Below are positions 1,645 through 59,427 of a stretch of 64,000 bases of DNA, piece by piece; within the stretch, counting starts at the first letter, position 1, and the number at the start of each line of letters is the position of its first letter. The stretch lies in the NCBI GenBank assembly GCA_004297205.1, contig SCUL01000002.1, positions 530,893 through 594,892 on the forward strand, written 5' to 3'. The notes below the pieces were generated by a model. That model was not told where the DNA came from and made no database searches. It saw nothing but the letters and a program-made list of their open reading frames with translations. Made by a program: the position numbers and the translations under genes. The DNA comes from Patescibacteria group bacterium. GTDB taxonomy: Bacteria; Patescibacteriota; Patescibacteriia; 2-12-FULL-57-11.

Positions 1645-3852
1645 ATGCGCTTTGTACCGTTTGTCGTTGCGGCGGCGTTTCTGCTCTTCGCCCCCGCGCT
1701 CGCCCGCGCCGCCTCCACGGTCGTTATTACGCGCGTCGCCGCCTACGAGGCGTCCGACCATGAATGGATCGAAATCAAAAACACGGGCGATGCGCCATTC
1801 GATCTCACCGGTTGGAAGTTCTGGGAGGACAACGTGAACCACGGGCTGACCGCCTTCCGCGGTGGCATGACGCTCGCACCCGGCGAGAGTGCCGTCATCG
1901 CCGACGTGGCCGCAACCTATACCACCGACCATCCGGAGTGGAGCGGGATGATCCTCGATTCCAGCTGGACATCGCTCGCGCTTGACGGCGAACCGATCGG
2001 CCTGCGCGACTCGGCCGGAGAGCTCCATCAGTTTACGGATGTGGTCTGGTTGAGCGAGCCGCCCGGAACGGCGGCACCCGCGCCGACAGCGGATGCGCCT
2101 CCAACATCGAGCGCGCCCGCCCCGCAGGGCGGCGAGCTCCTCCTCTCCGAAGTGCTCCCCGCGCCTACCGACGGCGGCGAATGGATCGAAGTGCAGAATG
2201 TCGCGAGTTCGACGATCCGTCTCGACGGCCAGGAGCTGCATGACGCGGTCGGCCGCATCGCGGTGCTGACCGGCGATCTCGCTCCCGGCGCGTACCTGCA
2301 GATCAGCCTGACCTCTGCGAAGCTCAACAACTCCGGCGACACGGTCACATTGCGTTCGGTCTCCGCGGTGCTCGACGAAGTCCGCTACGGCGACGACCTG
2401 CTTCCGGCTCCGGAATCGGGCATCGCGCTGGCCCGCGACGGTGCCGCCTGGACGCTGACCATGAGCGCGACGCCCGGCGCAGCCAACCGCATCACCGCGC
2501 TGCCGAGCGCGCCCAAGAAATCCGCGCCGGCGCGGGTTGGACCAGACACGACGCTGCATCCCGGAAGCATCCTCATCAATGAAATCGCGCCGCGCGAGGA
2601 AGACGGTGACGACTGGATCGAATTCGCCAACCGCACCGACCGCCGCCTCGACCTGCGCGGCTGGAAACTGCTCGTCGGCGCGGACGCAGAAATTCCGCTC
2701 TTCGGAAAAATCAGCGCGGGAAGCCGGATGCTGGTGCGCCTCGGCGGCGACCCGCTGCCAGACAAAGCGCTGCTCTTGCTTGCGGCCGCCGACGGCAGCA
2801 CGCAAGACCAGGTGACGTACGGCCCCTATAGCGACGGAAACGACGCCGACAACGCGCCCGCTCCTGAACTCGGAAAAACGGTTGCTCGTCACGAAGGGCA
2901 GAACACCGAAAGCGACGCGGAGGACTTCTATCTCCCGCGCGCGGCGACGCCCGGCAAGCAGAACATTGCGCCAGAAGATGAAGGGGAGGAGACCATGGTC
3001 ACGACGCGCGCGATCATCATTCCGAGCTGCATCCTCCCAGAAGAAAACGTCGCGGAAACCACGACCGTGCGCGCTGCAACAACTGCCACGCCAAAAAAGA
3101 CCGTCGCGAAAACAAAGACCGTTGCAAAAAAGAAGGGCAGCGCTCCGGCACCCCGATCCGCGTTGCTTGCGGAGATCGGCGAACTCCCGGACAAGTCCAA
3201 AGTGCGCGTCACCGCGACCGTCGTGGGTGCGCCGCCGGCGAGCAGCGGCCGCATCTGGTTCCTCGGTGACGGAGATGCCGGTGCCAAACTCCAGCTGACG
3301 GGAAAACCGCTCATGCTCGCCGCGGGAGAGCGCATCCGTCTCACCGCGACGACCGACTGGACGACCGGTCCGCTCCTGCGCGCGGCATCCGCCGCCGTGG
3401 AACGCATCGGCTCCGCAACCGCCACCGTTCCCGTCACACGCGGGCTGGCGGAGCTCACTTCAGACGACGGGCATCGCCTCGTCGCGGTCCGCGGAGAAGC
3501 CGTGAGCCGGCGTGGCGACGCGGTGACCATCGAAGACGGGACCGGGCGATTGAACATGACCTTGCCGCAAGGCGTTCCCGGACAGACCGGCGATACGTTC
3601 GACGCAACCGGCATCTACTTGGTCGGCGACCCGGGACGGCTGCTCGTCCTCACCACATCTTCTGCGGCAGTGAGCCGTCCCGCGGCTGCCATCCCTGGCC
3701 GTACCGCCTCGGGCGCGTCCGGCCCATCAAGCCGCGACTCTCCGTGGCCGCTCGTCGGCGCGGCAGCGTTGCTCGGCGCCGGAACGCTGCTCCTCGTCCG
3801 CCGTCCGTCGACCGGTGCCAAAGAAACGTCACTCATGCTTGATCACTCGTAA
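1645..3852 (+). CDS. secreted, membrane-anchored surface protein with three lamin-tail domains (LTD)
   Basis: Signal peptide MRFVPFVVAAAFLLFAPALARA. Three LTD signatures are present: EWIEIKNTGDAPFDLTGWKF, EWIEVQNVASSTIRLDGQEL and DWIEFANRTDRRLDLRGWKL. A C-terminal TM anchor (AAALLGAGTLLLVRR) follows. Start chosen at ATG 1645; the track start 1606 is TTG. GGTACAC lies just upstream of the ATG. Confidence 0.7.
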   Translation: MRFVPFVVAAAFLLFAPALARAASTVVITRVAAYEASDHEWIEIKNTGDAPFDLTGWKFWEDNVNHGLTAFRGGMTLAPGESAVIADVAATYTTDHPEWSGMILDSSWTSLALDGEPIGLRDSAGELHQFTDVVWLSEPPGTAAPAPTADAPPTSSAPAPQGGELLLSEVLPAPTDGGEWIEVQNVASSTIRLDGQELHDAVGRIAVLTGDLAPGAYLQISLTSAKLNNSGDTVTLRSVSAVLDEVRYGDDLLPAPESGIALARDGAAWTLTMSATPGAANRITALPSAPKKSAPARVGPDTTLHPGSILINEIAPREEDGDDWIEFANRTDRRLDLRGWKLLVGADAEIPLFGKISAGSRMLVRLGGDPLPDKALLLLAAADGSTQDQVTYGPYSDGNDADNAPAPELGKTVARHEGQNTESDAEDFYLPRAATPGKQNIAPEDEGEETMVTTRAIIIPSCILPEENVAETTTVRAATTATPKKTVAKTKTVAKKKGSAPAPRSALLAEIGELPDKSKVRVTATVVGAPPASSGRIWFLGDGDAGAKLQLTGKPLMLAAGERIRLTATTDWTTGPLLRAASAAVERIGSATATVPVTRGLAELTSDDGHRLVAVRGEAVSRRGDAVTIEDGTGRLNMTLPQGVPGQTGDTFDATGIYLVGDPGRLLVLTTSSAAVSRPAAAIPGRTASGASGPSSRDSPWPLVGAAALLGAGTLLLVRRPSTGAKETSLMLDHS

Positions 3853-3863
3853 CCGACACATGT

Positions 3864-4085
3864 ATGCAGACTGCTGAAACCCGCGTTGCCCCGGCCGAAG
3901 CCCTCCGCAATGACTTCCTGGCCTTCGCCGACACGCTCGGTCTGACCGCCGAGAGCCGCGAGGCCTGCCTGTCCTTCCTGATGGAAAAATCCCGTCAGGC
4001 CTGGATCAACGGCAAGGAGTTCGGCTGGAAGAAAGCCTGGAACTGGAAGCGCGGCCAGAAGGGTGGTGACCGCCCGGCGGCCTAG
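3864..4085 (+). CDS. hypothetical small protein (73 aa)
   Basis: ATG-initiated ORF followed immediately by a strong terminator. No recognisable domain. Confidence 0.45.
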   Translation: MQTAETRVAPAEALRNDFLAFADTLGLTAESREACLSFLMEKSRQAWINGKEFGWKKAWNWKRGQKGGDRPAA

Positions 4086-4091
4086 AACGCA

Positions 4092-4123
4092 ACACACACC
4101 TCCGAGGAGGTGTGTGTTTTTAC
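4092..4123 (+). terminator. Rho-independent terminator
   Basis: Perfect palindrome acacacacctcc ga ggaggtgtgtgt followed by ttttta. Confidence 0.65.
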
Positions 4124-4302: not shown

Positions 4303-4325
4303 CGAGCATGTTATACTGCTCCCAT

Positions 4326-4616
4326 ATGAGACGAGTTCTTATCATAGCCATCTTGTTGGTCCTCGCGGCAGGGGGCGTCCTCTTTTTTGCCGTCCGACCA
4401 GACGCACCCGCATTGCCGGCGACGCAGCCGGACACCGCCTCCGGCGCCGCAGCGGAAGCGTTCGACGTCGACGTGGACGAGATCATCGCACAGGAGACGC
4501 TCAATGCGGAATCGGACGATGGTGCGGAACTGGACGACCTTCCCGACGACGGAACACTGCTCGCCGAAGAACAAGCATTCGGTTCTTTGGACCTCGGCAT
4601 GGTCGCCCCTCAATGA
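4326..4616 (+). CDS. small membrane-anchored acidic protein (97 aa), unknown function
   Basis: MRRVLIIAILLVLAAGGVLFF is followed by an Asp/Glu-rich tail. TATACT lies 8 nt upstream of the ATG (leaderless pattern). The track ORF 4224 start overlaps the tRNA and is rejected. Confidence 0.45.
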   Translation: MRRVLIIAILLVLAAGGVLFFAVRPDAPALPATQPDTASGAAAEAFDVDVDEIIAQETLNAESDDGAELDDLPDDGTLLAEEQAFGSLDLGMVAPQ

Positions 4617-5253: not shown

Positions 5254-5267
5254 GGTACACTGGTGCC

Positions 5268-6377
5268 ATGCATCTGCCGGACATGCCCAAACGGCTCATC
5301 CCCTTCCCGCTCGTCCTCGTGGCCATAACGGGCGCGTTCATTCTGGTCGCCTTGTACGCCGACGTGCGCGGCCGGGAGCGGCGCGCCGCGGAGACGCCTG
5401 CTGCCCCGGTCGCATCGTCGGAAACTCCCGTGCAGACACCCGAACCCGCCGCTGCAACGTCCACCGAGGTGCAGCCGGAGGAGCAGACGCCCGAGCCGCT
5501 CGGCCTGCCGCCCGAATCGCCGACCTCGGACATCCCAGCCGTCGCCGTATTCGATTGTTTACGTTTTGAATATCGGGATAACCGACTCGTGGTAGGGGAT
5601 CGCTTCCTTCACGTGGCCACAAGAAAGCCTGCGCTCGTCGATGAAAAGACGCTCCATCTTCGCTGCAGAACGAATAACGACGTCGTCCGTGCGCCGAACG
5701 GAAAAACCTTCTTTGTTAGCTCTGCTCCGCCTTGGCCACGGGATAGCCGAAACACGCAGCAGCCCGAAACAATCGCCGTCTGGACGGTCTTTGAGGTCAA
5801 CTCGACGACCGGAATCCTTCGCGAAATCGCTCGCCTGCCCGATGCGCATCAGGAATCGGATGATCTGCGCGGGATAACTGTCAGTGACGACGGATCCTTC
5901 CTCGTCGGCGAACTCCACGTGAGGGGTCTCCCCTTGTCGCTGCTGCGCATTGACACGGCGACCGGGGAAATCAAACGCACGCCGGAACACGGCAGCCAGC
6001 AAACGATTCTCTTCACGGCAGATCGCCTCCGCGCGCTCGGCATCGAGTGGCGGTGCGGAGAGGGCGGCGACTGTTTTGAATCGCTCTTCCTGCACCGCTA
6101 CAACCTCGAAACTCAGCAGCGGGTCCGCGTGGGAGAACTCAAAGGGGCCGTAATGGGACAGCTGCCCGTGATGCTAGATGACGGACGCATCGTCGTCCCG
6201 GGAGAAGCGACGCCATTGTTCATCGTCAACAGCACAACCGGCCGGACGGCGCCTATCCGCATGGTCACGACGAAGGTCGACGTGCTCGGCGTCACGACGG
6301 ACGGCACCACACTCGTAGTTTCTGGCCCCGACCTTCCGCTCACCGCGATCCCCGTCGCGGAGTTGCCGAAACCGTGA
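5268..6377 (+). CDS. hypothetical N-terminally membrane-anchored protein (369 aa)
   Basis: The start was chosen at ATG 5268 (MHLPDMPKRLIPFPLVLVAITGAFILV), 6 nt after TACACT. The track start 5097 would run through the terminator and promoter. No recognisable domain. Confidence 0.55.
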   Translation: MHLPDMPKRLIPFPLVLVAITGAFILVALYADVRGRERRAAETPAAPVASSETPVQTPEPAAATSTEVQPEEQTPEPLGLPPESPTSDIPAVAVFDCLRFEYRDNRLVVGDRFLHVATRKPALVDEKTLHLRCRTNNDVVRAPNGKTFFVSSAPPWPRDSRNTQQPETIAVWTVFEVNSTTGILREIARLPDAHQESDDLRGITVSDDGSFLVGELHVRGLPLSLLRIDTATGEIKRTPEHGSQQTILFTADRLRALGIEWRCGEGGDCFESLFLHRYNLETQQRVRVGELKGAVMGQLPVMLDDGRIVVPGEATPLFIVNSTTGRTAPIRMVTTKVDVLGVTTDGTTLVVSGPDLPLTAIPVAELPKP

Positions 6378-6487: not shown

Positions 6488-6552
6488 AAAAAACTCCATC
6501 AAAAAGGGGTTTTTCTTGTTTTTCACGGTCGCCGCGGCTACAATGACGCCGT

Positions 6553-7593
6553 ATGGAGGCCCTCGAAAACGCCGACAATCGCCTGGTGGCCGGGGACGTC
6601 CAACAGGAAGACGCCCAGATCGACGTCGGCTTGCGGCCGACGACGCTGGCCGAGTTCATCGGTCAGGAGAAGATCAAGGAGAACCTGGACATCTTCCTGT
6701 CCGCTGCCAAAAAACGCGGCGAACCCATTGAACACGTCCTGCTCTACGGCAACCCCGGGCTCGGCAAAACCACGCTGGCCCACGTCATCGCCCATGAGAT
6801 GGGCGCGAACATCAAGGTGACGAGTGGTCCGGCGTTGGAGCGCGTCGGCGACCTGGCCGCGATCCTGTCGTCGCTCGAGACGGGCGACATCCTGTTCATC
6901 GACGAAATCCACCGGCTCAACAAAACGATCGAGGAAGTGCTCTATCCGGCCATGGAGGATTTCGCGCTCGACGTGGTGATCGGCAAAGGGCCGTCGGCGC
7001 GCACCATCCGGCTGGCGCTCAACCGCTTCACCATCATCGGCGCGACGACGCGGCTTTCCCTGTTGTCCGCACCGCTGCGCGACCGCTTCGGCGTCACGCT
7101 GCACATCAGCTTCTACGAGGAAGGCGACATCCGGAACATTCTGGCGCGCAGTGCGCGTCTCCTTGAGGTGACCATCGACACCGACGCGCTCGGCCTGCTC
7201 GCCTCGCGCAGCCGCCGCACGCCGCGCGTCGCCAACCGCCTGCTGAAGCGGGTGCGCGACTACGTGGAAGTGAAGCATGCCGGCATCATCAGCGCGCCCT
7301 TGGCCGTCGAAGCCCTGGCCGCGCTCGACATCGACCCCATGGGCCTCGACGACGTCGACCGCCGTCTGCTCGGGACGATCATCGAAAAATTCAACGGCGG
7401 ACCGGTCGGTCTCTCGGCGCTGTCCGCCGCCACGGCCGAAGAGATCGCCACCATCGAAGAAGTCCACGAACCCTTCCTGATGCAGGTCGGCCTGATTGAA
7501 CGCACGCCGCGCGGCCGCATGGCTACGGTCCGCGCCTACCAACATCTTGGTTTCGCCGCGCCTGCCCGGCCGGCTTTGTTCCCCGCCGCATGA
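6553..7593 (+). CDS. ruvB: Holliday junction branch migration ATPase RuvB
   Basis: Walker [12 protein letters not shown]. The AAA+ and RuvB C-terminal domains are conserved throughout. TACAAT lies 8 nt upstream of the ATG. Confidence 0.9.
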
Positions 7594-7835
7594 TCATTCC
7601 TCTGTACGTCCTTGCTCTCGTCTTTCTGGTGCCCGTCGCCGGGGTCGGCATCATGGGCGCGCTCAAAAGCAAACAGCTCTTCGCCTACGGCGGCGCCTTT
7701 TCCGCTTTCCTGGCCACGGCGGTCTTTTGGGGCGGGTTCGCGCTCATCCTCCTCACCACCTGGAGCATGCTCGCGGGCGTCGACTGGACGACGCCGCTCC
7801 TCGACCTCAGCGTCTTCCTGAGCCCGCCCGTGTAA
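7590..7835 (+). CDS. small membrane protein (81 aa)
   Basis: Its ATG overlaps the ruvB stop (ATGA), suggesting translational coupling. Three hydrophobic helices. Confidence 0.5.
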
Positions 7836-7845
7836 ACTCGTCCTT

Positions 7846-8403
7846 ATGCACTACCCGTTCCTCATCACCTGCCACGGCAAGCCGGAAACGCCGATTCTCA
7901 CCCTGCGCGCGCACCCGGTTGTCTTCCTCACCGGCGGCGCGGTTTTCCTGATCCTGTTCTTCGTCCCCTTCGCCGCGGCGGCGCTCCTTCCGGAGCTGAC
8001 TGCAACGCTCTTGGAGTCGACCGTGCTGGGGACGGGCACGGTGCTCCTCGTGTCGCTCTACATGCTCGTCGTGCTACTGCTCGGCTTCAACCATTTCTTC
8101 AACTGGTTTTTCGACATCTGGGTCGTGACCAATGAACGCATCGTCGACATCGACCAGGAGGGCGTCTTCTCCAAGAAGATCGGCGAATTGGAGCTCCACA
8201 AAGTCCAGGATGTGCTGGCCGAGAGCCACGGCGTCCTGGCCACCGTCTTCGGCTATGGCCGGATCAAAGTGGAGACGGCCGGATCGCATACCGAATTCGC
8301 CTTCGACGGCCTCCCCAAACCCTACGCCGTCGCCAAACACATCCTCGAACTCGCCAAAGCCGACGCGCCGCTCCACCAGGGCGAAGCCGCCGCCCAACAC
8401 TGA
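7846..8403 (+). CDS. membrane protein with bacterial PH (bPH_2/YdbS-like) domain
   Basis: Two N-terminal TM helices are followed by WVVTNERIVDIDQ...ELELHKVQDV...FGYGRIKVETAG. TAAACT lies 7 nt upstream of the ATG. Confidence 0.6.
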   Translation: MHYPFLITCHGKPETPILTLRAHPVVFLTGGAVFLILFFVPFAAAALLPELTATLLESTVLGTGTVLLVSLYMLVVLLLGFNHFFNWFFDIWVVTNERIVDIDQEGVFSKKIGELELHKVQDVLAESHGVLATVFGYGRIKVETAGSHTEFAFDGLPKPYAVAKHILELAKADAPLHQGEAAAQH

Positions 8404-10389: not shown

Positions 10390-10410
10390 CTTTTCCGTAG
10401 ACTATCTGTC

Positions 10411-11853
10411 ATGGCTGAACTCGCCAGAAACACCTACGTCCAGTTTGCCGCCCGGGGTATCGGCACCGCGCTTGGCGTGGTTGCCATTGCCCTCATCACC
10501 CGCACGCTGGGTCCGGAAGGATTCGGGGCCTACACCACCGTCACCTCGTTCCTCCAGATCTTCGGCGTGCTCGTGGACTTCGGCCTGACCATCGTCGGAC
10601 TCCAGCTGCTCTCCGAACCCGGTGCCGACGAGGGGCGCGTGCTCGGCAACGTGCTCGGGGTCAGGCTGGTCACGGCCGTGACCTTCCTGGGACTCGCGCC
10701 GCTGGCCGTACTGTTCTTCCCGTATCCGCAGGAGGTGAAGATCGGCGTGGCGTTCACGACGTTGTCGTTCCTGGCGCTGGCCGTCCATCAGATTATTACG
10801 ACTTTGTTCCAGAAACGGTTACAGATGCGGGCCGCGGCCGCGGCGGAGCTGGCCGGACGCGCCATCCTGGTTGCACTCGTCGCTCTGGCCGCCTGGTCCG
10901 GCTGGGGGCTGTACGGGATGCTCGCGGCAACCACGGCCGCGAACGTTTTGCAGCTTGCCGTGGCCTGGATTGCGGCCAATCGCATGGTGCCGATCCGTAT
11001 CCGCTACGAGCTGGCCTTCTGGAAACGCATCCTGACCTTGTCCTGGCCGATCGGCGTGTCCATCGCCTTCAATCTGATCTACCTGCGTGCCGACGCCGTC
11101 ATCTTGTCTTTAACCCGCAGCCAGGAAGAGCTTGGTCTCTACGGCGCCGCCTACCGCGTGATCGACGTGCTGACCGTGCTGCCGTTCCTGCTCATGGGGC
11201 TTGTCCTCCCTCGGCTCGTCACGGCGGTGAAGACGGGCGACGTGGCGCGGTTCGGTGCGCTCATGGCGCGCTCGGCGCGCTTCCTGTTGGCTTCAATACT
11301 CCCCGTCTGTTTCGGCGGACTAGTGCTCGCCGACCAGATCATGATCGCCGTATCCGGCGAAGCCTTCGCGCCCTCCGGCATGTTCCTGGCGGTGTTGCTC
11401 TTCGGCGTGGCCATGATTTTTTGGGGTACGGTCTACAGCCATGCCGTGGTGGCGCTCGAACTGCAGCGCACCATGCTGCCGTTCTACGCGCTGAACGCGG
11501 CACTGGCGCTCGCCCTTTATGTCTGGCTCATTCCGCGCTTGGGCGCGCCGGCTGCCGCCTGGATCACGGTGCTCTCCGAAACGACCATCGCGGTTGCCGC
11601 GGCGGTCGTGGTGCGCCGCAAGATGCCGGTACCACTCCCGCTCGGCAACGCCGCGCGCATCGTGCTTGCCGCCGCGCTCATGGCCGCCACGCTCTGGCTC
11701 GTCTTGCGCGCCGTGCCGCTGCCGCTCGTCGTCTCCCTTCCGCTCGGCGGGCTGCTGTACGCCGCTTTCCTGCGACTCTCCGGCGGTCTGACCGCAGACG
11801 ATTGGCGGGCGATCCTGGCACCGTTCAGCCGAAATAAACCGGTAGTTTCCTGA
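10411..11853 (+). CDS. polysaccharide/O-antigen flippase (Wzx, MOP superfamily)
   Basis: A 12-TM protein with a Polysacc_synt-like profile. The start was chosen at ATG 10411 (MAELARNTYVQFAARG), 7 nt after TAGACT. Confidence 0.75.
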   Translation: MAELARNTYVQFAARGIGTALGVVAIALITRTLGPEGFGAYTTVTSFLQIFGVLVDFGLTIVGLQLLSEPGADEGRVLGNVLGVRLVTAVTFLGLAPLAVLFFPYPQEVKIGVAFTTLSFLALAVHQIITTLFQKRLQMRAAAAAELAGRAILVALVALAAWSGWGLYGMLAATTAANVLQLAVAWIAANRMVPIRIRYELAFWKRILTLSWPIGVSIAFNLIYLRADAVILSLTRSQEELGLYGAAYRVIDVLTVLPFLLMGLVLPRLVTAVKTGDVARFGALMARSARFLLASILPVCFGGLVLADQIMIAVSGEAFAPSGMFLAVLLFGVAMIFWGTVYSHAVVALELQRTMLPFYALNAALALALYVWLIPRLGAPAAAWITVLSETTIAVAAAVVVRRKMPVPLPLGNAARIVLAAALMAATLWLVLRAVPLPLVVSLPLGGLLYAAFLRLSGGLTADDWRAILAPFSRNKPVVS

Positions 11854-14588: not shown

Positions 14589-14624
14589 CCCCGCCTCCCT
14601 CGGAGGCGGGGATTTTGGTACACT
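14589..14624 (+). promoter_or_regulatory. conserved hairpin + T-tract + TGGTACACT promoter cassette (copy 2)
   Basis: Sequence ccccgcctccctcggaggcgggg atttt ggTACACT. It lies 12 nt upstream of the galU ATG and also serves as terminator for the upstream gene. Confidence 0.45.
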
Positions 14625-14636
14625 TCGGTCGTGCCT

Positions 14637-15521
14637 ATGTCGAAATCCTCCTCCATCCGCAAAGCCATCCTCCCCGTGGCAGGCCTCGGGACCCGGTTCC
14701 TGCCCGCGACCAAGGCCATGCCCAAGGAAATGCTGGCCGTCGTCGACAAGCCGGTCATCCAGTACATCGTGGAAGAAGTCGTGGCCAGCGGCATCGAAGA
14801 GATCATCTTCGTGACGGCGCTCGGCAAACGCGCCATCGAAGACCACTTCGACCGCAACTTTGAACTGGAGTACCGCCTCGAACAAAAGAAGAAGGAGAAG
14901 GAGCTGGGCGCGCTCAAGCAAATCGGCAAGATGGCCAGATTCGCCTTCGTCCGCCAGCAGAAGCCGCTCGGCGATGGCGACGCGATTCTCGCCGCGCTGC
15001 CGTTCATCGACCAGCACGAACCGGTCGCGGTGGTCTTCGGCGATGCCATCACGCGCTCCCGGAAGCCGGGCCTCGCCCAACTCATCGACGTCTACAACCG
15101 CTACCAGGATCCGGTCGTCGGCGTCACGGCCGTTTCCAAGAAGGACATCTCCAACTACGGCGTCATCGACGGACACAAGCTCGACGGCGCGGCCTACGAG
15201 ATCCATGGCTTCGTGGAAAAACCGTCGCCATCCGAAGCGCCGTCGAACCTGGCCGTGATGGGCGAGTACATCGTGACGCCGGACGTGCTCACACTTCTCA
15301 AAAAGCAAAAACCGGGCAAGGACGGCGAACTCAGGCTCGCCAACGCGCTGATCGCCCACCTCAAGGCCGGCCGCGCGCTCTACGGCTGCGCCGTGGAGGG
15401 CGAGTGGTTCGACTGCGGCTCCAAGCTCGGCTTCCTCCAAGCCCAGATCGCCTTCGGCCTGGCGCATCCGGAAACCGGCAAGGCGTTGCACAAACACCTG
15501 CGCTCGCTTCGGGCGTCATAA
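14637..15521 (+). CDS. galU: UTP--glucose-1-phosphate uridylyltransferase
   Basis: N-terminal KAILPVAGLGTRFLPATKAMPKEMLAVVDKPVIQYIVEE matches the GalU family. The start is ATG 14637; the track start 14631 is GTG. Confidence 0.85.
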   Translation: MSKSSSIRKAILPVAGLGTRFLPATKAMPKEMLAVVDKPVIQYIVEEVVASGIEEIIFVTALGKRAIEDHFDRNFELEYRLEQKKKEKELGALKQIGKMARFAFVRQQKPLGDGDAILAALPFIDQHEPVAVVFGDAITRSRKPGLAQLIDVYNRYQDPVVGVTAVSKKDISNYGVIDGHKLDGAAYEIHGFVEKPSPSEAPSNLAVMGEYIVTPDVLTLLKKQKPGKDGELRLANALIAHLKAGRALYGCAVEGEWFDCGSKLGFLQAQIAFGLAHPETGKALHKHLRSLRAS

Positions 15522-15544
15522 ATGCCGCCCCTACACGCATTTCT

Positions 15545-16960
15545 ATGATCGGCTCTTTCTTCCGCCGCACCACCGCACTCGCCGCCATCGCCGCAGTCGT
15601 CCTTTCGGGCGTCGGCTGCACGCGCGGCGTCCCCGCCGACGTCGTTGAAGCGACGCGGCCGTTCACGCTCCAATTCTGGGGCGTGTTCGACGACTCCGAC
15701 GCCTTCGAACAGACCATCGCCCGCTACCGCGCGCTGCGCCCCCACATCACGGTCGAGTACCGCAAGCTGCGTCCGGAGGAATACGAGCGCGAGCTGATCA
15801 ACGCGCTGGCAGAAGACAAGGGGCCGGACATCTTCATGGTGCACAACACCCAGGTGGCCGAATACCAATCGAAGCTGCTCCCGCTCCCCGCATCGCTGAC
15901 CCTGCCCGTCCGCGAACAGCAGGGCACCATCCAAAAACAGGTCGTGACCGTGCTGCGCCAGGTGCCGTCGCTCTCCATCCGCCAGCTCCAGAGCCAGTTC
16001 GTGGACGTGGTAGCCGAGGACGTGGTGCTGCCGCGCGAAGAAACCACGACCGGCGGCGGCCGCCAGACCGTGAACCGCATCTACGGCCTGCCGCTCTCCG
16101 TGGACACGCTGGCGCTCTACTTCAACAAGACGCTCTTGAACCAGGCCGGCATTCCGGAGGCGCCGCGTTCCTGGGGCGAAGTACAGGCCGCCGCGCGCAA
16201 CAAGCGGCTGACCGTCTACGACGCCAGCCAGCGCATCACCCAGAGCGCCATTGCCATGGGCACGGCCGGAAACGTGGAGCGCGCCGTGGACGTGCTGCAG
16301 CTCCTGATGATGCAAAACCGCACCACCATGGCCGACGACGAGGGCACCGTTTCGTTCAACCGCCGCCCGGCCTCGGCCGTGGGCGAACTCAACCCCGGCG
16401 CCGAAGCATCCGTCTTCTATACCGACTTCGCCAACCCGGTGAAGGAGGTCTACACCTGGAACGACACCATGCCGAGCTCGCTCGAGGCCTTCGCCGGCGG
16501 ACGCACCGCCATGTTCCTGGGCTACTCCTACCACCTGGCCACCATCCGCGCCCGCGCGCCCAAGCTCGAAGTCGGCATCGCCCCGATCCCCCAGATCGGC
16601 GACGAGATCAACTTCGCCAACTACTGGGTGAACGGCGTCTCCACCAAGTCCGAACACGCGGACGAGGCCTGGGACTTCGTGCAGTTCATGGCCGCACAGG
16701 ACCAGGCCAAGACGTATCTGGACGCCACCAAGCGCCCGACGGCGCTGCGCGCGCTCGTCGGCGCGCAGCGGGAAGACCTCGATATCGGCGTGTTCGCGGC
16801 CCAGGCGCTGACCGCCAAGAGCTGGTACAAAGGGCATGACGCCGCGGCCATGGAAACAGCCTTCAAGGACCTGATCCGCGACGTCCTCGCCAACCCCTCC
16901 AATCCGCAGCAGTGGGTGGAAATCGCCGCCCAGAAAGTCGCCCAAACCTACAGCTTCTAA
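15545..16960 (+). CDS. ABC-transporter extracellular solute-binding lipoprotein (family 1, sugar-binding-like)
   Basis: Lipobox LSGVGC and an SBP_bac_1-like profile. The start is ATG 15545 (MIGSFFRR), 7 nt after TACACG. The first pilin gene follows 3 nt after the stop. Confidence 0.75.
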   Translation: MIGSFFRRTTALAAIAAVVLSGVGCTRGVPADVVEATRPFTLQFWGVFDDSDAFEQTIARYRALRPHITVEYRKLRPEEYERELINALAEDKGPDIFMVHNTQVAEYQSKLLPLPASLTLPVREQQGTIQKQVVTVLRQVPSLSIRQLQSQFVDVVAEDVVLPREETTTGGGRQTVNRIYGLPLSVDTLALYFNKTLLNQAGIPEAPRSWGEVQAAARNKRLTVYDASQRITQSAIAMGTAGNVERAVDVLQLLMMQNRTTMADDEGTVSFNRRPASAVGELNPGAEASVFYTDFANPVKEVYTWNDTMPSSLEAFAGGRTAMFLGYSYHLATIRARAPKLEVGIAPIPQIGDEINFANYWVNGVSTKSEHADEAWDFVQFMAAQDQAKTYLDATKRPTALRALVGAQREDLDIGVFAAQALTAKSWYKGHDAAAMETAFKDLIRDVLANPSNPQQWVEIAAQKVAQTYSF

Positions 16961-17817: not shown

Positions 17818-17852
17818 GTTCCTTCCCGGAAATGCGCTATACTGGGAGCCAT

Positions 17853-18731
17853 ATGCGCCGCACTCTCCTTCTGCTCGCTGCACTCGCCGTCCTGATCGCC
17901 CCCGTGCTGGCGGTCCCTTCATCCGCGGCCGCGGCCGACATCTGGCGTTGCACCTCCTGTGAATGCAACTGTGACGGAACGCCCGACTTCGAAAGTGGCG
18001 GCATTCCGGATCCCTCCCCGTTCGATGGGACCGATCCGCAGGGGACGTGCGACCGCTTCTGCTCCGGCGCCGACGGGTGCGACCGCGACGTCCCCCGCGA
18101 AGCCGCACGTGCCGTGAGCTGCACCAACCTCGGCCCTGCGGGCGGCGGCGCGGCGACCGGTTCCTGCTGGTGCATCAACGATGCAGGCACCTGCAGCCAC
18201 AACGCCGGCGTGACTGAAGGCAACTGCCGCGACCTCGCCGCCGGACCCTGCCGCGGCCAGCGCGTGGTGCGCTTTGAAGTCGAATACGACTGCTCGGTGT
18301 GTCTCGCCTCAAGCGGCTCGGGCTGCACGGCCGGCGCAGGCAGCTGTTCGGAGGAAACCATCGCCCGCTGCGAAGCGGGTGCGGGCGGCGGGCTTTCCCC
18401 GTCCGCGCCGGGCACCGGTACGACCGGTGACGTCGTCGGTCCCGGGGGCGGCCGCGGCGCACCGGCACCGACGTTGCCGAACCCGCTCGGCGGCACCACC
18501 GACATCCGTACCATCATCGGCCGCGTCATCAACGCCGCGCTCGGCATTTCCGGTTCCATCGCGCTTTTGATGTTCATCTGGGGTGGAATGCTTTGGTTGA
18601 CGTCGGGGGGCAGTCCTGAGAGAATACAGAAAGGAAAAAATACGATTGTCTGGGCCGTCTTGGGGCTCGTCCTCATCTTCGGCTCCTACGCGATCCTGAA
18701 CTTCGTGCTCGGAGCGATCCTCAGCGCGTAA
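17853..18731 (+). CDS. Cys-rich secreted domain (N-terminal) fused to a C-terminal TrbC/VirB2-like pilin domain
   Basis: ATG 17853 gives MRRTLLLLAALAVLIAPVLA. The N-terminal domain has about 24 cysteines (CTSCECNCDG, CDRFCSGADGCD, CWCINDAGTC). A Gly-rich linker follows, then the pilin core ALGISGSIALLMFIWGGMLWLTSGGSPERIQKGKNTIVWAVLGLVLIFGSY. Confidence 0.7.
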   Translation: MRRTLLLLAALAVLIAPVLAVPSSAAAADIWRCTSCECNCDGTPDFESGGIPDPSPFDGTDPQGTCDRFCSGADGCDRDVPREAARAVSCTNLGPAGGGAATGSCWCINDAGTCSHNAGVTEGNCRDLAAGPCRGQRVVRFEVEYDCSVCLASSGSGCTAGAGSCSEETIARCEAGAGGGLSPSAPGTGTTGDVVGPGGGRGAPAPTLPNPLGGTTDIRTIIGRVINAALGISGSIALLMFIWGGMLWLTSGGSPERIQKGKNTIVWAVLGLVLIFGSYAILNFVLGAILSA

Positions 18732-18830
18732 AAGGGGACGCACTATCCGAAGCGCGGGCGTGCGACGATCCGAAAACATCGGAACGCCGCAGCACCCGCA
18801 CTTCACCAATGAAAGGGGGTGACAACCTGC

Positions 18831-19202
18831 ATGCAACACATCAAACGCTTCGCATCCGGCATCGTGCCGTTCCTGATGCTCTCGCTGCCGATGGCCGCTC
18901 AGGCGGCCGGCGTCAACCTGGGTCTCACGAGCGACGTCGAAGGCGCGCTCGGTCTCGGTACTCAAGACGTCCGCGTGACCATCGCCCGGATCATCAACGT
19001 GTTCATGGGGCTCCTCGGCATCATCGCCGTGGTGATCATCCTCTACGGTGGATTCATCTGGATGACCGCCGCCGGCAACGAGGAACGCGTCGACAAGGCC
19101 CGCAAGATGATCGTGGCCGGCGTCATCGGCCTGGCCATCATCCTCTCGGCCTACGCCATCGCCCGCTTCGTGGTCAACTCGCTGGTCAACGCCACGAGCT
19201 AA
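18831..19202 (+). CDS. TrbC/VirB2-like pilin paralog
   Basis: ATG 18831 is preceded by AAAGGGGG at 10 nt. Core FMGLLGIIAVVIILYGGFIWMTAAGNEERVDKARKMIVAGVIGLAIILSAY. Confidence 0.7.
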   Translation: MQHIKRFASGIVPFLMLSLPMAAQAAGVNLGLTSDVEGALGLGTQDVRVTIARIINVFMGLLGIIAVVIILYGGFIWMTAAGNEERVDKARKMIVAGVIGLAIILSAYAIARFVVNSLVNATS

Positions 19203-21991: not shown

Positions 21992-22596
21992 CGCGCACCT
22001 CCGTCCGTCGTTCCCTCGACCGTGTAGCCGTGGAACATGTCCACGGCCTCGCCGGTGGCCCGCTCGAGACGCTCGACGCGCCGCGAGAGGTCGGCCGAAC
22101 CGACCGCGCCGTAGCCCCCGACCGTGTCGGCGTAGGCCGAGGTCGGCCCCGTGTCGAACATCGGGAAGTAGTACCCGGGTCCGCCGACACCCCCGCCGCC
22201 GAAGTACGAGCCGAAGCTCGGGTCCTCGGAGAGCAGCGTCTGCAGCAGCCACGGGTACCGCCCGATGCAGGTCGAGAGGTCGCGCTCGCGCCCGTCGTCC
22301 GCGCCGTGCATGCACGCCGCGAGCTCCGGGGTGAGCGCCTCGATCAGCAGCGCGTGCGCGCGGCTGATGCCGGCGCGTGCCGTGATGCGGCCCGCCTCGG
22401 CCTCGGCCACCACGGTGGTGGCGCGAACCGAGCCGGCGGCCAGGATCGTCGACGACGGGGGCTCGGTGGAGCTCCCGCGGATCGACGCCCCGTGTCCGTC
22501 GTAGGACACGGGGTGCGAGAGGGAGATCCCTCCCGCGCAGCCCGCTCCCAGAAGGACGAGGGCCAGGATTCCACAGAAACAGTTGAGCTCGCGCAT
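21988..22596 (-). CDS. lipoprotein, unknown function (203 aa)
   Basis: ATG 22596 is preceded by AAGGAGAG at 7 nt. Lipobox LLGAGC. A Gly-rich segment GGGGVGGPGYYFP is present. Confidence 0.6.
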   Translation of the reverse strand: MRELNCFCGILALVLLGAGCAGGISLSHPVSYDGHGASIRGSSTEPPSSTILAAGSVRATTVVAEAEAGRITARAGISRAHALLIEALTPELAACMHGADDGRERDLSTCIGRYPWLLQTLLSEDPSFGSYFGGGGVGGPGYYFPMFDTGPTSAYADTVGGYGAVGSADLSRRVERLERATGEAVDMFHGYTVEGTTDGGAR

Positions 22597-22730
22597 CGTC
22601 GTTCTCTCCTTGGGAGCGGGTTTACGTGCCTCCCAGCACGGTGCCTTCCAGCACATCCCGGCCGATTTCATGATAAACAGGCCAAAATGTGCTGGAAAAC
22701 ACGACTTGGGATTCAAAGAACGAACGGCTG

Positions 22731-22760: not shown

Positions 22761-22847
22761 CCCCACTTTAACACGGGCAAAAAGAAGCGGGTGCCTCGGT
22801 GAGCCCTTGTGGGACCCAACCGAGACACCCGTTCGCGACCGGGCGCG

Positions 22848-24464: not shown

Positions 24465-24474
24465 CTCTTCCTCC

Positions 24475-34678: not shown

Positions 34679-34693
34679 AACGCCGAGAATGTA

Positions 34694-53979: not shown

Positions 53980-54773
53980 ACCGCGACCGGCGCCTTGATG
54001 GCCGGATGCGGGTCGTAGCCCTCGATGGCCACGTCCTCGAACTTGAAATCGAAGAGATTCTTTACGGCTGGATTCAGAACGAGTTTCGGCAGCGGCCGCG
54101 GTGCGCGGGACAGTTGTTCCTTCACCTGGTCCAGATGGTTCAGGTAGATGTGGACGTCACCGAAGGTGTGGATGAACTCGCCGGGCTGCAGTCCCGTGAC
54201 CTGGGCGATCATATGGGTGAGGAGCGCGTACGAGGCGACGTTGAACGGTACGCCCAGGAAGACGTCGGCCGAGCGTTGGTAAAGCTGGCAGGAAAGCTTG
54301 CCGTCCACGACGTAGAACTGGAACAGGCAGTGGCAGGGCGGCAGCGCCATCTGGTCGATGTAGGGGACGTTCCAAGCCGAGACGATCAGGCGGCGGGAAT
54401 GCGGCTTGGTCTTGATCTCGTTCACCAGCCAGGAAATCTGGTCGTACGTCTTGCCGTCGCCGTTCGGCCAGCGGCGCCACTGCGCGCCGTAGACCGGGCC
54501 GAGATCGCCGTTCTCCGCGTTGGCCCACTCATTCCAGATGCGCACGCCGTTATCCTGGAGATATTTCACGTTGGTGTCGCCGGCCAGGAACCACAGCAGC
54601 TCGTGGGTCACGGATTTGGGATGGACCTTCTTCGTCGTGAGGAGCGGAAAGCCGTCCGCCAAATTGTGGCGGTACTGATAACCGAAGGTGCTGATCGTCC
54701 CGGTGCCGGTGCGGTCTTCCTTCTTCACGCCGTGGTCCAGGATGTGCTGGAGAAGATCCAAATACTGTCGCAT
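53976..54773 (-). CDS. thyA: thymidylate synthase (ThyA)
   Basis: [15 protein letters not shown]...[11 protein letters not shown]...[14 protein letters not shown] lies 8 nt upstream of ATG 54773 on the minus strand. Confidence 0.9.
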
Positions 54774-54820
54774 ATGTGCGCATGGTATCCCCCTGAGCGC
54801 ACAGGGACAAACGCCTGGAA

Positions 54821-55428: not shown

Positions 55429-56784
55429 CTAGTTTTTACCAGAGCCCCGGAAAAGTGTCGAGGCCGGCAGGAAACGGACCTGGTCGATGTCGGCAGCGTC
55501 CGTCATGAGCATCACGAGCCGGTCGACGCCCAGCGCGGTGCCGCCCGAGGGCGGCATGCCGACCTCGAGCGCGGCAAGGAGGTCCTCGTCGATCGGGAGC
55601 TGCGTCTTTTTCAGCTTCTTGCGCAAAACGCGCTCTTCCACGAGGCGGACGCGTTGCTCCACCGGGTCGTTCAACTCGGTGTAGCCGTTTGAAAGCTCGA
55701 GACCGCCGACATAGACCTCGAAGCGTTCGGCAAAGGCCGGATCGCCCTCTTTGAGCTTGGCGAGCGCGGACAAGGGCGCCGGGTAGTCGTAGACAATGGT
55801 CGGCCGGCGGCGGCCGAGGCAAGGTTCGACTTCGTTCAAGAAGACGCGGAAGAACAGGTCCTCGTAGCGCTCCTTCTCGTCCGGCCGGTAGCCTTTGGCG
55901 CGCACCGCGGCAAACAGCGCGTCGCGGTCGCGCAGCGCTTCCGGATCCATGCCCGCGTACTGGCGGAAAGCCTCGGACACGCTCATCCGCTCGACGCCGG
56001 TGAGATCGATCGTCGCGCCCTGGAACGGCAGTACCAGCTCGCCGACCACGTCCTTGGCGACGTAGCGCAGGAGCTCTTCGACGTCGTCCATGATCTCGCG
56101 GTACGAGGCGTAGGCCCGGTACCACTCGAGCATCAGGAATTCCGGATTGTGCGTCTTCCCCCATTCTTCGCCGTTCCGATAAACGCGCGCGACGTCGTAG
56201 ATGCGCTCGAATCCGGCAGTGAGCAGTTTCTTCAAGCTGTACTCCGGCGAGGTCACGAGGTAGCCGGGCGACTTCTTGCCGCGGACGTCGATGAGCGTGG
56301 TCTCGAACGGCGTGAGGTAGGGCTCCATGCCTGGTGCGGCCACAAGCGCCGGCGTGTCGCATTCCGTGAAGCCGCGTTTGGCAAAGAAGGCACGGATGGC
56401 GGCGAGCACTGCGGCGCGCTTCTGGAGCACGGCGCGCGCCTCAGGTGCGCGGACGAGCTGTTCCCACTGGCTCGCATCGGTCGGCGCGCGGCGGTTCGGC
56501 ACGAGCACGCGCAGGGCCTCCGCCTGGACGCGATGTGCCTGGACGAGTCCCGTGCACTCCACGATGTCGTTGACCTGCGCAGGCGTCTCCGGCGGCGCGA
56601 TGCAGGTGACGGTGCCGGTCTCATCGGCGACCACGAGCAACGCCTGCCCGTGGCGCTCCTCGCGCGACAAAACACGCCCGCAGACCGTCACTTTTTTGAC
56701 GACGGCGCGCTTCGCCTGCGCGGCCGTCGCGGTGCGCGCGGCGCGGGCGGGGTACGCGTATTGCTTGGGTTCCTGCTTCGGCAT
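55429..56784 (-). CDS. lysS: lysine--tRNA ligase, class II
   Basis: N-terminal OB anticodon-binding fold. Class II motif 2 YRNGEEWGKTHNPEFLMLEWY and motif 3 GGTALGVDRLVML are present. ATG 56784 is preceded by AGGAGG at 5 nt. Confidence 0.85.
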   Translation of the reverse strand: MPKQEPKQYAYPARAARTATAAQAKRAVVKKVTVCGRVLSREERHGQALLVVADETGTVTCIAPPETPAQVNDIVECTGLVQAHRVQAEALRVLVPNRRAPTDASQWEQLVRAPEARAVLQKRAAVLAAIRAFFAKRGFTECDTPALVAAPGMEPYLTPFETTLIDVRGKKSPGYLVTSPEYSLKKLLTAGFERIYDVARVYRNGEEWGKTHNPEFLMLEWYRAYASYREIMDDVEELLRYVAKDVVGELVLPFQGATIDLTGVERMSVSEAFRQYAGMDPEALRDRDALFAAVRAKGYRPDEKERYEDLFFRVFLNEVEPCLGRRRPTIVYDYPAPLSALAKLKEGDPAFAERFEVYVGGLELSNGYTELNDPVEQRVRLVEERVLRKKLKKTQLPIDEDLLAALEVGMPPSGGTALGVDRLVMLMTDAADIDQVRFLPASTLFRGSGKN

Positions 56785-56802
56785 TCACTCCTCCTTCTAT
56801 GC

Positions 56803-58062: not shown

Positions 58063-58142
58063 AGATTCGCCCCCGGCGCCGGACTTATGTGCCCGGCCGC
58101 GTGGTCCCCGCCAGAGGCGGGGCGGGGGATTTGTTCGTCCGG

Positions 58143-58171
58143 ACACTACCAGACCCCTTTGCGCCTGACAA
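58143..58171 (-). promoter_or_regulatory. putative sigma70 promoter (TTGTCA-17-TAGTGT) for the rpsF-ssb-rpsR-lysS-efp operon
   Basis: The minus strand reads TTGTCA ggcgcaaaggggtctgg TAGTGT. An approximately 75-nt leader follows with hairpin CCCCGCC tct GGCGGGG. The divergent plus-strand -10 GGTACACT lies at 58186. Confidence 0.4.
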
Positions 58172-58203
58172 GGGTCGGCCACCCGGGTACACTGACAGGC
58201 GTT

Positions 58204-59427
58204 ATGCCGCTGTTTTTCGCCGAGCTCGGCCGCCACCCCGCCTTGTCCGCAACCGAATTGCTGATCCGCTCCCGGACCGACGGTACCCCGCTTGCGCTTG
58301 GCCCGTTCGGGCCGGATATCCTCCTGCTCGATGGACCGGAGCCGCCGTCCGGTTTCGCGGGCGCGCTCGGCGGCACCATCCGTTTCGGCCAGGTGTTGGA
58401 AACGTACAACGGCGCACCGACGGAGGCGCAGGTCATCGACGCCGTGGCCGCCGCAGTCGGCGCGCGCATCGCCGCCGGGAAAACGACCTTCGGCTTATCC
58501 GCCGCGGCGCTTGGCCCGAACATCCCCCTCCCCTCGCTGCCGAAGTTGCGCGCCTGGGGGCTCAGCGTAAAGAAAACGCTCAAGGAACGCGGTTCGGCTC
58601 GGCTCATCACCGGCACGGGACGCTTGCTTTCGCCGGTCGCCGTCGCCAAGAACGGCCTGCTCGCGACAGGCGGCGATTTTCTCATCCTGATCGAACGCAG
58701 CCGCTGGCACCTGGCACGCACCAGCTTCGTCCACGACTTCGAAGGCCAGGCCCACCGCGAATTCGACCGACCGGTGGCCAACCCCCAATCCGGCATGCTG
58801 CCGGTGCAGCTGGCCCGCGTCCTCGTAAATCTCTCCGGCAAAAGCGGCACGCTGCTCGACCCGTTCTGCGGCTCGGGCACGGTCCTCGGCGAAGCCATGC
58901 TCCTCGGCTGGCAGCGCGTCATCGGCAGCGACATTTCCATGCAGGAGGTGGATGCGGCGCGCGCCAACCTGGCCTGGCTTGCCAACCAGGCCGGCCGGCT
59001 GCGGCCGCCGGAGTTGCTCGTCTCATCCGCCGAAGGACTGGATCGGACCATTCCGCGCGGCACGATCGACGCCATCGTGACCGAGCCGACGCTCGGCCCG
59101 GCACTCCGTGGCCGCGTGGAGGTCAGCAAACTGATAAAAAACGCCGAAGATTTGAAAAAGCTCTATCGCCGCGCGCTGGCGGCGTTCCGGCAACCGCTCA
59201 AAGACGGCGGCCGCGTGGTCATGGTCTTCCCGCGTTTCAACGACGGCCGCATCCCCACCACCCTCCTCGACAAAGATTTCGCCGCCATCGGTTATAAGAG
59301 GATGGTGCCGGCCCGCGACCTGCCGGCGGCGCTGCGCACGGACACGACACCCGAGGGCAACCTGCGCTATGCCCGGGCCGACGCCCGGGTGATCCGTGAA
59401 ATCGTCATTCTGGTGAAGCAATCTTAG
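58204..59427 (+). CDS. class I SAM-dependent RNA methyltransferase (Trm11/RlmL-like N2-guanine/N6-adenine type, putative)
   Basis: Motif I LLDPFCGSGTVLGEA and motif IV-like IVTEPTLG. ATG 58204 lies 10 nt after TACACT. The track start 57565 is rejected. Confidence 0.6.
   Translation: MPLFFAELGRHPALSATELLIRSRTDGTPLALGPFGPDILLLDGPEPPSGFAGALGGTIRFGQVLETYNGAPTEAQVIDAVAAAVGARIAAGKTTFGLSAAALGPNIPLPSLPKLRAWGLSVKKTLKERGSARLITGTGRLLSPVAVAKNGLLATGGDFLILIERSRWHLARTSFVHDFEGQAHREFDRPVANPQSGMLPVQLARVLVNLSGKSGTLLDPFCGSGTVLGEAMLLGWQRVIGSDISMQEVDAARANLAWLANQAGRLRPPELLVSSAEGLDRTIPRGTIDAIVTEPTLGPALRGRVEVSKLIKNAEDLKKLYRRALAAFRQPLKDGGRVVMVFPRFNDGRIPTTLLDKDFAAIGYKRMVPARDLPAALRTDTTPEGNLRYARADARVIREIVILVKQS

Follow-up and report, generated by a model that had tools for sequence, protein, structure and literature searches.

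In Deinococcus radiodurans, the hexamer TANNNT (most often TACACT) is found 6–7 bp before about a third of the open reading frames (ORFs) (Zhong, 2025; PMC12340547), and 60% of the mRNAs of D. deserti are leaderless (de Groot, 2014; PMC4007540). About a quarter or more of the genes of Mycobacterium tuberculosis and M. smegmatis depend on TANNNT promoters with the transcription start site (TSS) on the start codon (Cortes, 2013; Shell, 2015; PMC4633059). Bacterial leaderless transcription also characterizes group C of GeneMarkS-2, which includes 90% of Actinobacteria and 97% of Deinococcus-Thermus; there, a Pribnow box lies 6–10 nt from the starts of first genes, an estimated 25–50% of operons are leaderless, and the other genes use a ribosome binding site (RBS) (PMC6028130). 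Here, we report on one 64-kb stretch of genome (hereafter the window, i.e., the whole stretch of DNA that was analyzed) from a high-GC member of the candidate phyla radiation (CPR, Patescibacteria), in which a hexamer resembling the -10 promoter element stands shortly before a number of ATG start codons. We consider it probable (at about 0.78) that roughly a third of the transcription units in this genome give leaderless or near-leaderless mRNAs.

This arrangement resembles that of Deinococcus, as a TANNNT -10 element lies about 6–7 bp before the start of about a third of the genes, a class of genes with a GGAG-type RBS exists alongside, and the motif corrects annotated ORFs that are too long. 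It differs in that the host belongs to CPR, not to Deinococcus-Thermus, and has a genome of about 0.86 Mb, in that the spacing is bimodal (6–7 and 8–10 nt), predicting many leaders of 2–3 nt, and in that Shine-Dalgarno sequences (SD) are rarer, most internal genes having none; also, the starts reported here are predicted from sequence alone. A -10 motif at 6–10 nt that favors the first genes of operons is shared with group C, but the internal genes of group C carry an SD-type RBS, whereas 20 of the 26 internal genes of the window have neither hexamer nor SD. High GC content and TANNNT promoters at starts are common to the window and to Mycobacterium, from which it differs in phylum and genome size. 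Mycobacteria also use GTG leaderless starts, whereas all the hexamer-associated starts found here are ATG.

Within the same superphylum, Tsurumaki (2022; PMC9297842) found that only 48% of the 16S genes of Parcubacteria contain the anti-SD motif, that protein bS21 is frequently absent and that bS1 is short. The low use of SD in the window and in its low-GC relatives fits this picture; promoters and leaderless starts were outside that work, and the anti-SD of the present lineage differs in being probably intact, given the pilin SD GAAAGGGGGTGA described below. No CPR lineage is named in group C in the text of PMC6028130, and the searchable literature on Patescibacteria, Parcubacteria and Saccharibacteria gave no report of leaderless mRNAs in CPR, only incidental mentions. 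What is new here is the lineage, the mechanism being already known from Deinococcus and Actinobacteria.

The Window and Its Relatives

The window has a GC content of 61–68% (about 64%) and contains about 60 genes and 4 tRNA genes. Its RuvB (6553–7593), DUF2079 protein (26176–28071) and RecA are each 100% identical to an NCBI protein (TAK05116.1, TAK05136.1 and TAK05425.1, respectively), all three from a Patescibacteria group bacterium metagenome-assembled genome. The GC content and the TACACT motif had pointed to a Deinococcus or an actinobacterium, an origin rejected on the basis of these protein matches. By protein match, the nearest named relatives are Candidatus Uhrbacteria, then Candidatus Magasanikbacteria; in a contig search with RuvB, the best among the matches listed was 69% identical. 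Genes of the window were called with a codon-usage score, and 60 starts were then curated by eye. Eight contigs of relatives (L081, L084–L089 and the Uhrbacteria-like L090; GC 58–70%), largely syntenic with the window and with genes called by others, provided 142 further starts; L081, the closest relative, originates from samples of the Hainich aquifer. The hexamer background was taken as the rate of TANNNT at 15–50 nt upstream, and shuffling was applied to the upstream 40 nt (2000 trials).

Hexamer Enrichment before Start Codons

The hexamer TANNNT ends 5–10 nt before 13 of the 60 window starts, against 2.0 expected (Poisson P = 2e-7). Shuffled upstream sequences gave a mean of 3.8 such starts and a maximum of 11, and the value of 13 was never reached. 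In the relatives, 24 of the 142 starts showed the hexamer at this distance, against 6.3 expected (P = 2e-8), with distance peaks at 6 nt and at 8–9 nt. When gene calls were not used, the window was found to contain 17 strict TA[CT]A[AC]T sites, and an ATG lies 6–10 nt downstream of 8 of them; the TACACT variant occurs four times in the window. A first-pass annotation, made from the letters of the window, had proposed to examine the distance of the -10 hexamer to starts, and the peak was found in both sets of starts: a Pribnow-type -10 motif is localized sharply 6–10 nt before them.

Promoter Properties of the Hexamers

Besides the position and the enrichment of the motif, we observed its dependence on operon position, a -35/TSS geometry around it and its conservation in relatives. 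The hexamer precedes 29 of the 112 first genes of transcription units and 7 of the 81 operon-internal genes (Fisher P = 0.0025), and most of the internal cases have a stop codon contained in the hexamer. Several hexamers lie directly 3' of a terminator hairpin, which leaves no upstream promoter to serve the gene. A -35-like box (at least 4 of 6 matches to TTGACA, 16–18 bp upstream) accompanies 51% of the hexamer sites vs 10% of control positions; the first -35 position is a T in 26 of 37 sites, and a G is present at -14 in 19 of them. This -35 signal is statistical, single boxes being weak. After the hexamer, 34 of 37 sites have a pyrimidine-purine step at position 7 or 8 (28 and 6 sites, respectively), against 42% expected (P = 2e-10, which, as for the -35 test, is an upper bound on significance). 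The leader predicted from this step is of 0 nt at 14 sites, 2 nt at 7 and 3 nt at 13.

Canonical TTGACA-17-TATNNT promoters were found at the tRNA genes and at the leadered SpoIID gene, showing that the polymerase reads this consensus. A strict two-hexamer promoter scan, which covered part of the window, detected only these strongest promoters (tRNA genes, SpoIID) and zero ORF-adjacent ones, because the -35 boxes of the latter are weak.

On the contigs of relatives, 23 of the 27 orthologues of window hexamer genes keep TANNNT at 5–12 nt, with an identity of 59% in the spacer and of 46% in the 10 nt upstream. The N-termini of the proteins agree with those of relatives from the initial methionine onward (MHLPDM, MAKK, MRQYLD, MPLFFA), and the Pfam models of ThyA (Thymidylat_synt) and Polysacc_synt begin at residues 2 and 4, respectively, so that these ATGs were taken as fixed. 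Also, in-frame stops are located shortly upstream of ATG 6553 and ATG 26176. The -35 signal, the pyrimidine-purine step, the first-gene bias and the conservation support the reading of the hexamers as sigma-70-type -10 elements, with a predicted transcription start at the AUG or at most 3 nt before it. The claim of the first-pass annotation that transcription begins at or within a few nt of the ATG is supported on the same grounds, about half of the sites predicting a leader of 2–3 nt.

We propose that, in these genes, a sigma-70-type promoter directly abuts the coding region. Its -10 element would read TA(C)A(A/C)T, often with a G at -14, and its weak -35 box (T-G-C) would lie 17 bp before the -10 element. 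Initiation by RNA polymerase would take place at the purine located 7–8 nt after the hexamer; with a spacer of 6–7 nt, this purine would be the A of the AUG, and with a spacer of 8–10 nt, a purine 2–3 nt upstream. The resulting leaderless or near-leaderless mRNA would have no room for an SD, and its decoding could be ensured by ribosomes recognizing a 5'-terminal AUG, by analogy with the leaderless mRNAs of Deinococcus, Mycobacterium and Escherichia coli. Three routes of initiation would thus coexist: a leaderless or near-leaderless one (about 11 of the 60 window genes, mostly first cistrons), an SD-led one (about 15% of genes, including a pilin gene with an extended SD and a four-gene operon), and one with neither signal, used by most operon-internal genes, in which the ATG overlaps the upstream stop or lies at most 12 nt from it. 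Where transcription starts and how ribosomes are recruited are both predicted here from the DNA sequence.

Individual Starts

The first-pass annotation had listed 13 ATGs as preceded by a -10-like hexamer and by no purine-rich SD. The hexamer was seen and the SD was absent at all 13, and ten of these starts are supported as leaderless or near-leaderless (4326, 5268, 6553, 10411, 17853, 26176, 31951, 48291, 54773 and 58204; Table 1), with moderate support for a leaderless-type start at 17853. An additional candidate, the ferredoxin gene at 34678, was absent from that list. The start at 5268 is preceded by TGGTACACT-6-ATG, identical in the window, L081 and L084, with spacers that vary between them (ggtgcc, gccacc and gcggcc). 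In ftsK, the hexamer (TACCAT or TACAAT) is found at 9 nt in all four sequences compared, including the Uhrbacteria-like contig. The product of ruvB counted from ATG 6553 has 346 aa, and the NCBI protein is equally long.

The three other listed starts did not hold up. The hexamer at 1645 and at 15545 is TACACG, without the conserved last T; at 1645, the spacing of 4 nt is also too short for a start at the AUG, and at 15545, the hexamer is missing in L081 and L085, and the start of the SBP gene overlaps the upstream stop in L081. At 7846, the hexamer includes the TAA stop of the upstream gene, and no hexamer is found in L081 or L084. A hexamer start added in the present analysis, 11858, was likewise counted among the chance or artefact cases.

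Table 1. Start regions of the window, with the signal found at each of them (positions in the 64-kb window; spacers are the nt between hexamer and ATG).
Gene or feature	Positions	Strand	Signal and start	Relatives and context
96-aa hypothetical protein	4312..4328	+	TGT-TATACT, 8 nt spacer gctcccat, ATG 4326; predicted TSS, A at -2	TATACT at 8 nt kept in L081; tRNA-Gly and hairpin precede
Gene 5268	5256..5270	+	TGG-TACACT, 6 nt spacer, ATG 5268; predicted TSS, A of ATG	Terminator 5231-5248 directly 5'
ruvB	6539..6555	+	TACAAT, 8 nt spacer, ATG 6553; -35-like TTGTTT 17 bp upstream	TACAAT or TAACAT at 8 nt in L081 and L084; in-frame stop 2 codons upstream
wzx (Polysacc_synt)	10398..10413	+	TAGACT, 7 nt spacer, ATG 10411	TACACT-7 in L081, TAGGAT-6 in L084; divergent from SpoIID gene, which has a leader and a classical TTGACA-17-TATATT promoter
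T4SS-pilin-domain gene	17838..17855	+	TATACT, 9 nt spacer, ATG 17853	TATACT at 12 nt in L087; none in L085
DUF2079 gene	26164..26178	+	TGT-TACAAT, 6 nt spacer, ATG 26176	TACAAT at 6, 6 and 8 nt in L086, L085 and L087
GT-C-like membrane protein	31949..31963	-	TATACT, 6 nt spacer, ATG 31951	TATACT at 6, 9 and 7 nt in L086, L085 and L087
ftsK	48276..48293	+	TACCAT, 9 nt spacer gccgctgtt, ATG 48291; predicted TSS, G at -3	Hexamer at 9 nt in L088, L089 and L090 (TACAAT in L090)
thyA	54771..54787	-	TACCAT, 8 nt spacer, ATG 54773; -35-like TTGTCC 17 bp upstream	
THUMP/UPF0020 RNA methyltransferase	58188..58206	+	TACACT, 10 nt spacer, ATG 58204; -35-like CTGACA 17 bp upstream	TACACT-9 in L089, TACTAT-10 in L090; none in L088
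Ferredoxin gene	34676..34693	-	TACATT, 9 nt spacer, ATG 34678	Hexamer immediately 3' of stop codon of upstream gene; hexamer at 9 nt in L085 and L087
LTD protein 1645 (not supported)	1635..1647	+	TACACG ends 4 nt before ATG; last T absent	
Gene 7846 (not supported)	7833..7848	+	TAAACT-7 includes TAA stop of gene 7590-7835	ATG operon-internal
SBP gene 15545 (not supported)	15532..15547	+	TACACG, 7 nt spacer	Gene 24 nt 3' of preceding gene
NTP transferase (short leader)	14619..14639	+	TGG-TACACT, 12 nt spacer, ATG 14637; predicted leader about 5 nt, no SD	TACACT at 14 nt in L081; terminator 14596-14612 upstream
Pyr_redox_2 gene (short leader)	34314..34334	-	TAAGAT, 12 nt spacer, ATG 34316; no SD	TAAGAT retained at 12, 13 and 15 nt in L086, L085 and L087
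Class II lysyl/asparaginyl-type tRNA synthetase (lysS-like)	56782..56800	-	SD GAAGGAGGAGTGA, then ATG 56784	
Four-gene operon	21989..26005	-	Starts 25989, 24464, 22596 and 21991, each with GGAGG, AGGAG or GAGGA SD 5-9 nt upstream	SDs conserved in L085 and L087
Gene 45853	45836..45855	+	SD GGAGGAG, then ATG 45853	
Gene 47409	47392..47411	+	SD GAGGAGA, then ATG 47409	
cNMP-binding protein	59541..59560	+	SD GAGGAG, then ATG 59558	
T4SS pilin	18811..18833	+	Extended SD GAAAGGGGGTGA 9 nt before ATG 18831	

Also, several ORF starts that had been suspected to be too long are indeed so: the ORF starting at 5097 passes through the terminator 5231–5248, and those starting at 17520 and 15404 overlap the genes 16964–17779 and 14637–15521, respectively. 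The shortened starts at 5268, 10411, 17853, 31951, 48291 and 58204 are right. For the RNA methyltransferase, a long plus-strand ORF fused with this gene (57565–59427) was rejected on the basis of coding scores and Pfam, as its part from 57565 is the shadow of minus-strand rpsF (58062–57619). The bS6 gene rpsF (57619–58062, minus; rpsF-ssb-rpsR operon) lies under this 620-codon shadow ORF; with such a GC content, gene calling that relies on ORF length risks being misled by shadows of this kind.

Almost the same combination of terminator and promoter, GGCGGG(G)ATTTTGGTACACTTCGG, was found twice, before consecutive genes (13380–13410 and 14590–14625, plus strand), and a third time, in similar form, at 5231–5261. 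In modules of this type, the T-run of the terminator adjoins the TGG-TACACT extended -10.

Promoters with Predicted Short or Longer Leaders

Conserved promoters at a somewhat greater distance, 11–15 nt before the ATG, were found at 14637, 34316 and 37360. At the first of these, a GTG at 14631, 6 nt 3' of TACACT, was tried as a leaderless start and rejected, as L081 aligns on ATG 14637.

The region 37361–37410 (minus) belongs to an Rrf2-family gene that heads a suf/NifU operon, and its TTGACA...TATACC promoter is conserved in L085, L086 and L087. A near-invariant inverted repeat, ATACCCGAC-TATA-CCGCTCGGTAAT, overlaps its -10 element and is probably an autoregulatory operator. In recA (51280–51320, plus), the -10 element TAGGAT or TACGAT is conserved (L088, L089), and the leader of 20–36 nt carries no SD; the NCBI RecA (361 aa) begins 9 codons 3' of the conserved MAKP N-terminus used in relatives. 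The YchF gene (60750–61832, minus) shows TGG-CATCCT 10 nt before its start, with TATCCT at 9 nt in L090, and this hexamer is a possible extended -10 promoter. The YchF GTPase has been reported to modulate the translation of leaderless mRNAs (work cited in PMC12641178).

Shine-Dalgarno-Led Genes and Genes with Neither Signal

A strong SD was found at only about 15% of starts, with a GGAG peak 4–9 nt upstream. The SD-led genes named by the first-pass annotation are real, each of them having GGAGG, AGGAG or GAGGA 4–9 nt upstream, and the dual strategy that it described is supported, as these genes form a conserved minority whose SDs are retained gene by gene in relatives. A measure of SD strength by duplex energy was nearly uninformative at 64% GC (22% of starts vs 17% of the control region). 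In the window, a strong SD precedes the lysS-like gene (56785–56800, minus), whereas in L088 (12064–12110) and L089 (15078–15120) its ATG lies about 7 nt 3' of the rpsR terminator hairpin, with no SD. Thus, the initiation signal of a gene can switch between close relatives.

The T4SS pilin gene at 18831, which had been missed, presents the extended SD GAAAGGGGGTGA. This sequence is complementary to the canonical 16S tail with one G·U pair (duplex energy -16.7 kcal/mol). Among the pilin orthologues on the metagenome contigs described below (L091–L170), 29 of 42 carry GAAAGGGGGTGA and 1 of 42 a hexamer, and the SD is kept even on contigs of 30–40% GC that are otherwise almost devoid of SDs. This conservation suggests that the anti-SD of the lineage is probably intact and that the dual strategy is old; given the GAAAGGGGGTGA SDs, a 16S rRNA 3' tail ending in ...UCACCUCCUUU is expected.

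Among the 26 operon-internal genes of the window, 21 overlap the upstream stop or lie at most 12 nt from it, which suggests termination-reinitiation coupling.

We also observed a bias in the nucleotides preceding the start codon. A T is present at -1 in 41 of the 60 window starts and in 78 of the 142 starts of relatives. The dinucleotide CT at -2,-1 is found in 19 of 60 window starts (background 5.4%, P = 2e-10) and in 31 of 142 in relatives (P = 2e-11), and in the window it is concentrated at genes that lack both the hexamer and an SD. This start-codon context might derive from U(-1) pairing with A37 of the initiator tRNA, or from reinitiation junctions.

A Candidate Structured RNA Upstream of Gene 45853

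The region of about 1.1 kb between rpoB (start 44740, minus) and the SD-led gene 45853 contains no credible ORF. A conserved TTGACA-17-TAGCCT promoter (45146–45174, plus) is followed by tandem structured units of about 150–160 nt, each beginning with GGAGGAGAGAG (45238 and 45438). Two units are present in the window (45146–45852) and in L088 (1240–1897), and one in L089 (3960–4507), with compensatory changes in 18 of 40 pairs (RNAalifold). A terminator-like hairpin (about 45772–45790) follows the units, then the SD and ATG 45853. No Rfam match was found for this RNA, and its covariance model detected no further copies in 1.25 Mb of collected loci. It is a candidate for a new riboswitch-like leader or noncoding RNA.

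Probable Occurrence across Patescibacteria

A metagenome search with a DUF2079 profile gave 80 contigs (L091–L170), mostly of 29–45% GC. Pilin genes are present on 58–61 of them, with the same gene order as in the window, so that these contigs very probably belong to CPR, their taxonomy being deduced from gene order alone. In 69 of the contigs (GC 29–63%), a DUF2079 orthologue could be compared: TANNNT was found at 5–10 nt in 39 and at exactly 6 nt in 25, for a baseline of about 2.3 per position, and an SD-like 4-mer in only 3. Similarly, 15 of 24 metagenome orthologues of the GT-C-like gene had TANNNT at 5–10 nt.

A start-agnostic scan of about 1 Mb revealed a 6-nt spike in loci with CPR synteny and in loci titled Patescibacteria. 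The same scan of 68 loci from other phyla gave no 6-nt spike, but a strong SD peak instead. For ruvB, TANNNT was found at 5–10 nt in 6 of 10 CPR-like loci, with SD in 0, vs 7 of 55 loci of other phyla (flat over distances), with SD in 24. The Magasanikbacteria loci (36–39% GC) showed almost no SDs; with about 30 genes, they are too AT-rich to reveal a hexamer peak.

The DUF2079 genes (69 contigs), the GT-C-like genes (24 contigs), ruvB (10 CPR-like loci) and the start-agnostic scan are the basis of a wider reading. According to it, leaderless or near-leaderless first cistrons would be conserved and common across a large part of Patescibacteria (29–70% GC), SD being used only by a small number of highly expressed genes, e.g., those of pilins. 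To our mind, the chances that this extension is correct are about even.

Alternative Explanations

Several observations weigh against leaderless initiation as the explanation of these starts. The window starts were curated by eye; nonetheless, the enrichment repeats with third-party gene calls. Orthologous sites are not independent of each other, so that the P values overstate the significance of the -35 and pyrimidine-purine tests. A canonical hexamer at 5–10 nt and an SD are both lacking in half of the first genes (e.g., rpoB, recA, efp and LTD), and leaderless initiation would therefore be only part of the story. Finally, spacers of 8–10 nt are about as common as those of 6–7 nt, so that many mRNAs would carry 2–3 nt before the AUG. 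In E. coli, the presence of 2–3 nt before the AUG reduces leaderless translation.

The abundance of 8–10 nt spacers is also the first argument for the explanation that survives best beside leaderless initiation, in which the hexamers are real promoters and the mRNAs have short leaders, of between a few and about 10 nt. Instead of 70S-type recognition of a 5' AUG, the 30S subunit would then bind in the ordinary way to a leader free of structure and SD, aided by the U at -1. The conserved promoters at 14637, 34316 and 37360 go in this direction, as do the frequent T at -1 and CT at -2,-1 of the window starts and the many leadered genes without SD, e.g., recA and 13427. Nevertheless, the peak is sharpest at a spacer of exactly 6 nt, a distance that makes the A of the ATG the canonical +1; this is seen in the window, in the close relatives and in the 25 of 69 DUF2079 orthologues. 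With spacers of 8–9 nt, just 2–3 nt remain before the ATG when counted from the conserved pyrimidine-purine step at position 7. Moreover, mRNAs with such very short leaders are translated with good efficiency in D. deserti, where they are classed as leaderless (PMC4007540). We regard short leaders read by ordinary 30S binding as unlikely.

The hexamer could also act at the RNA level, as a non-SD ribosome binding signal in a longer leader, of the type described for group B (Bacteroidota type), and not as a promoter. Its position would suit an RBS, and SD use is low in these genomes. However, the group B motif also precedes internal genes (PMC6028130), whereas the hexamer is depleted at the internal genes examined here (7 of 81 vs 29 of 112 first genes). 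In addition, it is accompanied by a -35-like box at 17 bp and by a pyrimidine-purine step at position 7–8, its consensus equals the -10 of the tRNA and SpoIID promoters, and it often stands directly 3' of a terminator. Such an RNA-level signal is very improbable.

Least probable of all is a product of chance or annotation, with AT-rich intergenic hexamers and start codons picked to fit: the starts 1645, 7846 and 15545 (3 of the 13 listed) and 11858 are of this kind, and the window starts were chosen by eye. Against it, the hexamer is 4 to 6 times as frequent as in the local background, an excess that repeats with independent calls and with a scan free of gene calls. Moreover, contigs of 58–70% GC and distant orthologues of 29–63% GC keep both the hexamer and its spacing, and the control from other phyla is flat.

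Significance

Leaderless or near-leaderless initiation, as proposed here, has a direct consequence for gene annotation. The longest-ORF rule and SD-based calling misplace N-termini in this lineage, and a -10 hexamer 6–10 nt upstream is a better guide.

CPR bacteria represent a large share of bacterial diversity. Their ribosomes are small, and many of them have no detectable anti-SD, which has made the start of translation in CPR a standing question. A promoter-abutting leaderless design, beside a small SD-led set and many SD-less coupled cistrons, offers a concrete and testable answer. If true, it would add another phylum-level group with abundant leaderless mRNAs, next to Actinobacteria and Deinococcus-Thermus, and it is relevant to the proposal of an ancestral origin of leaderless initiation, or of its link with streamlining. 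If the wider reading across Patescibacteria is also true, it would supply the missing initiation mechanism for a superphylum with reduced ribosomes.

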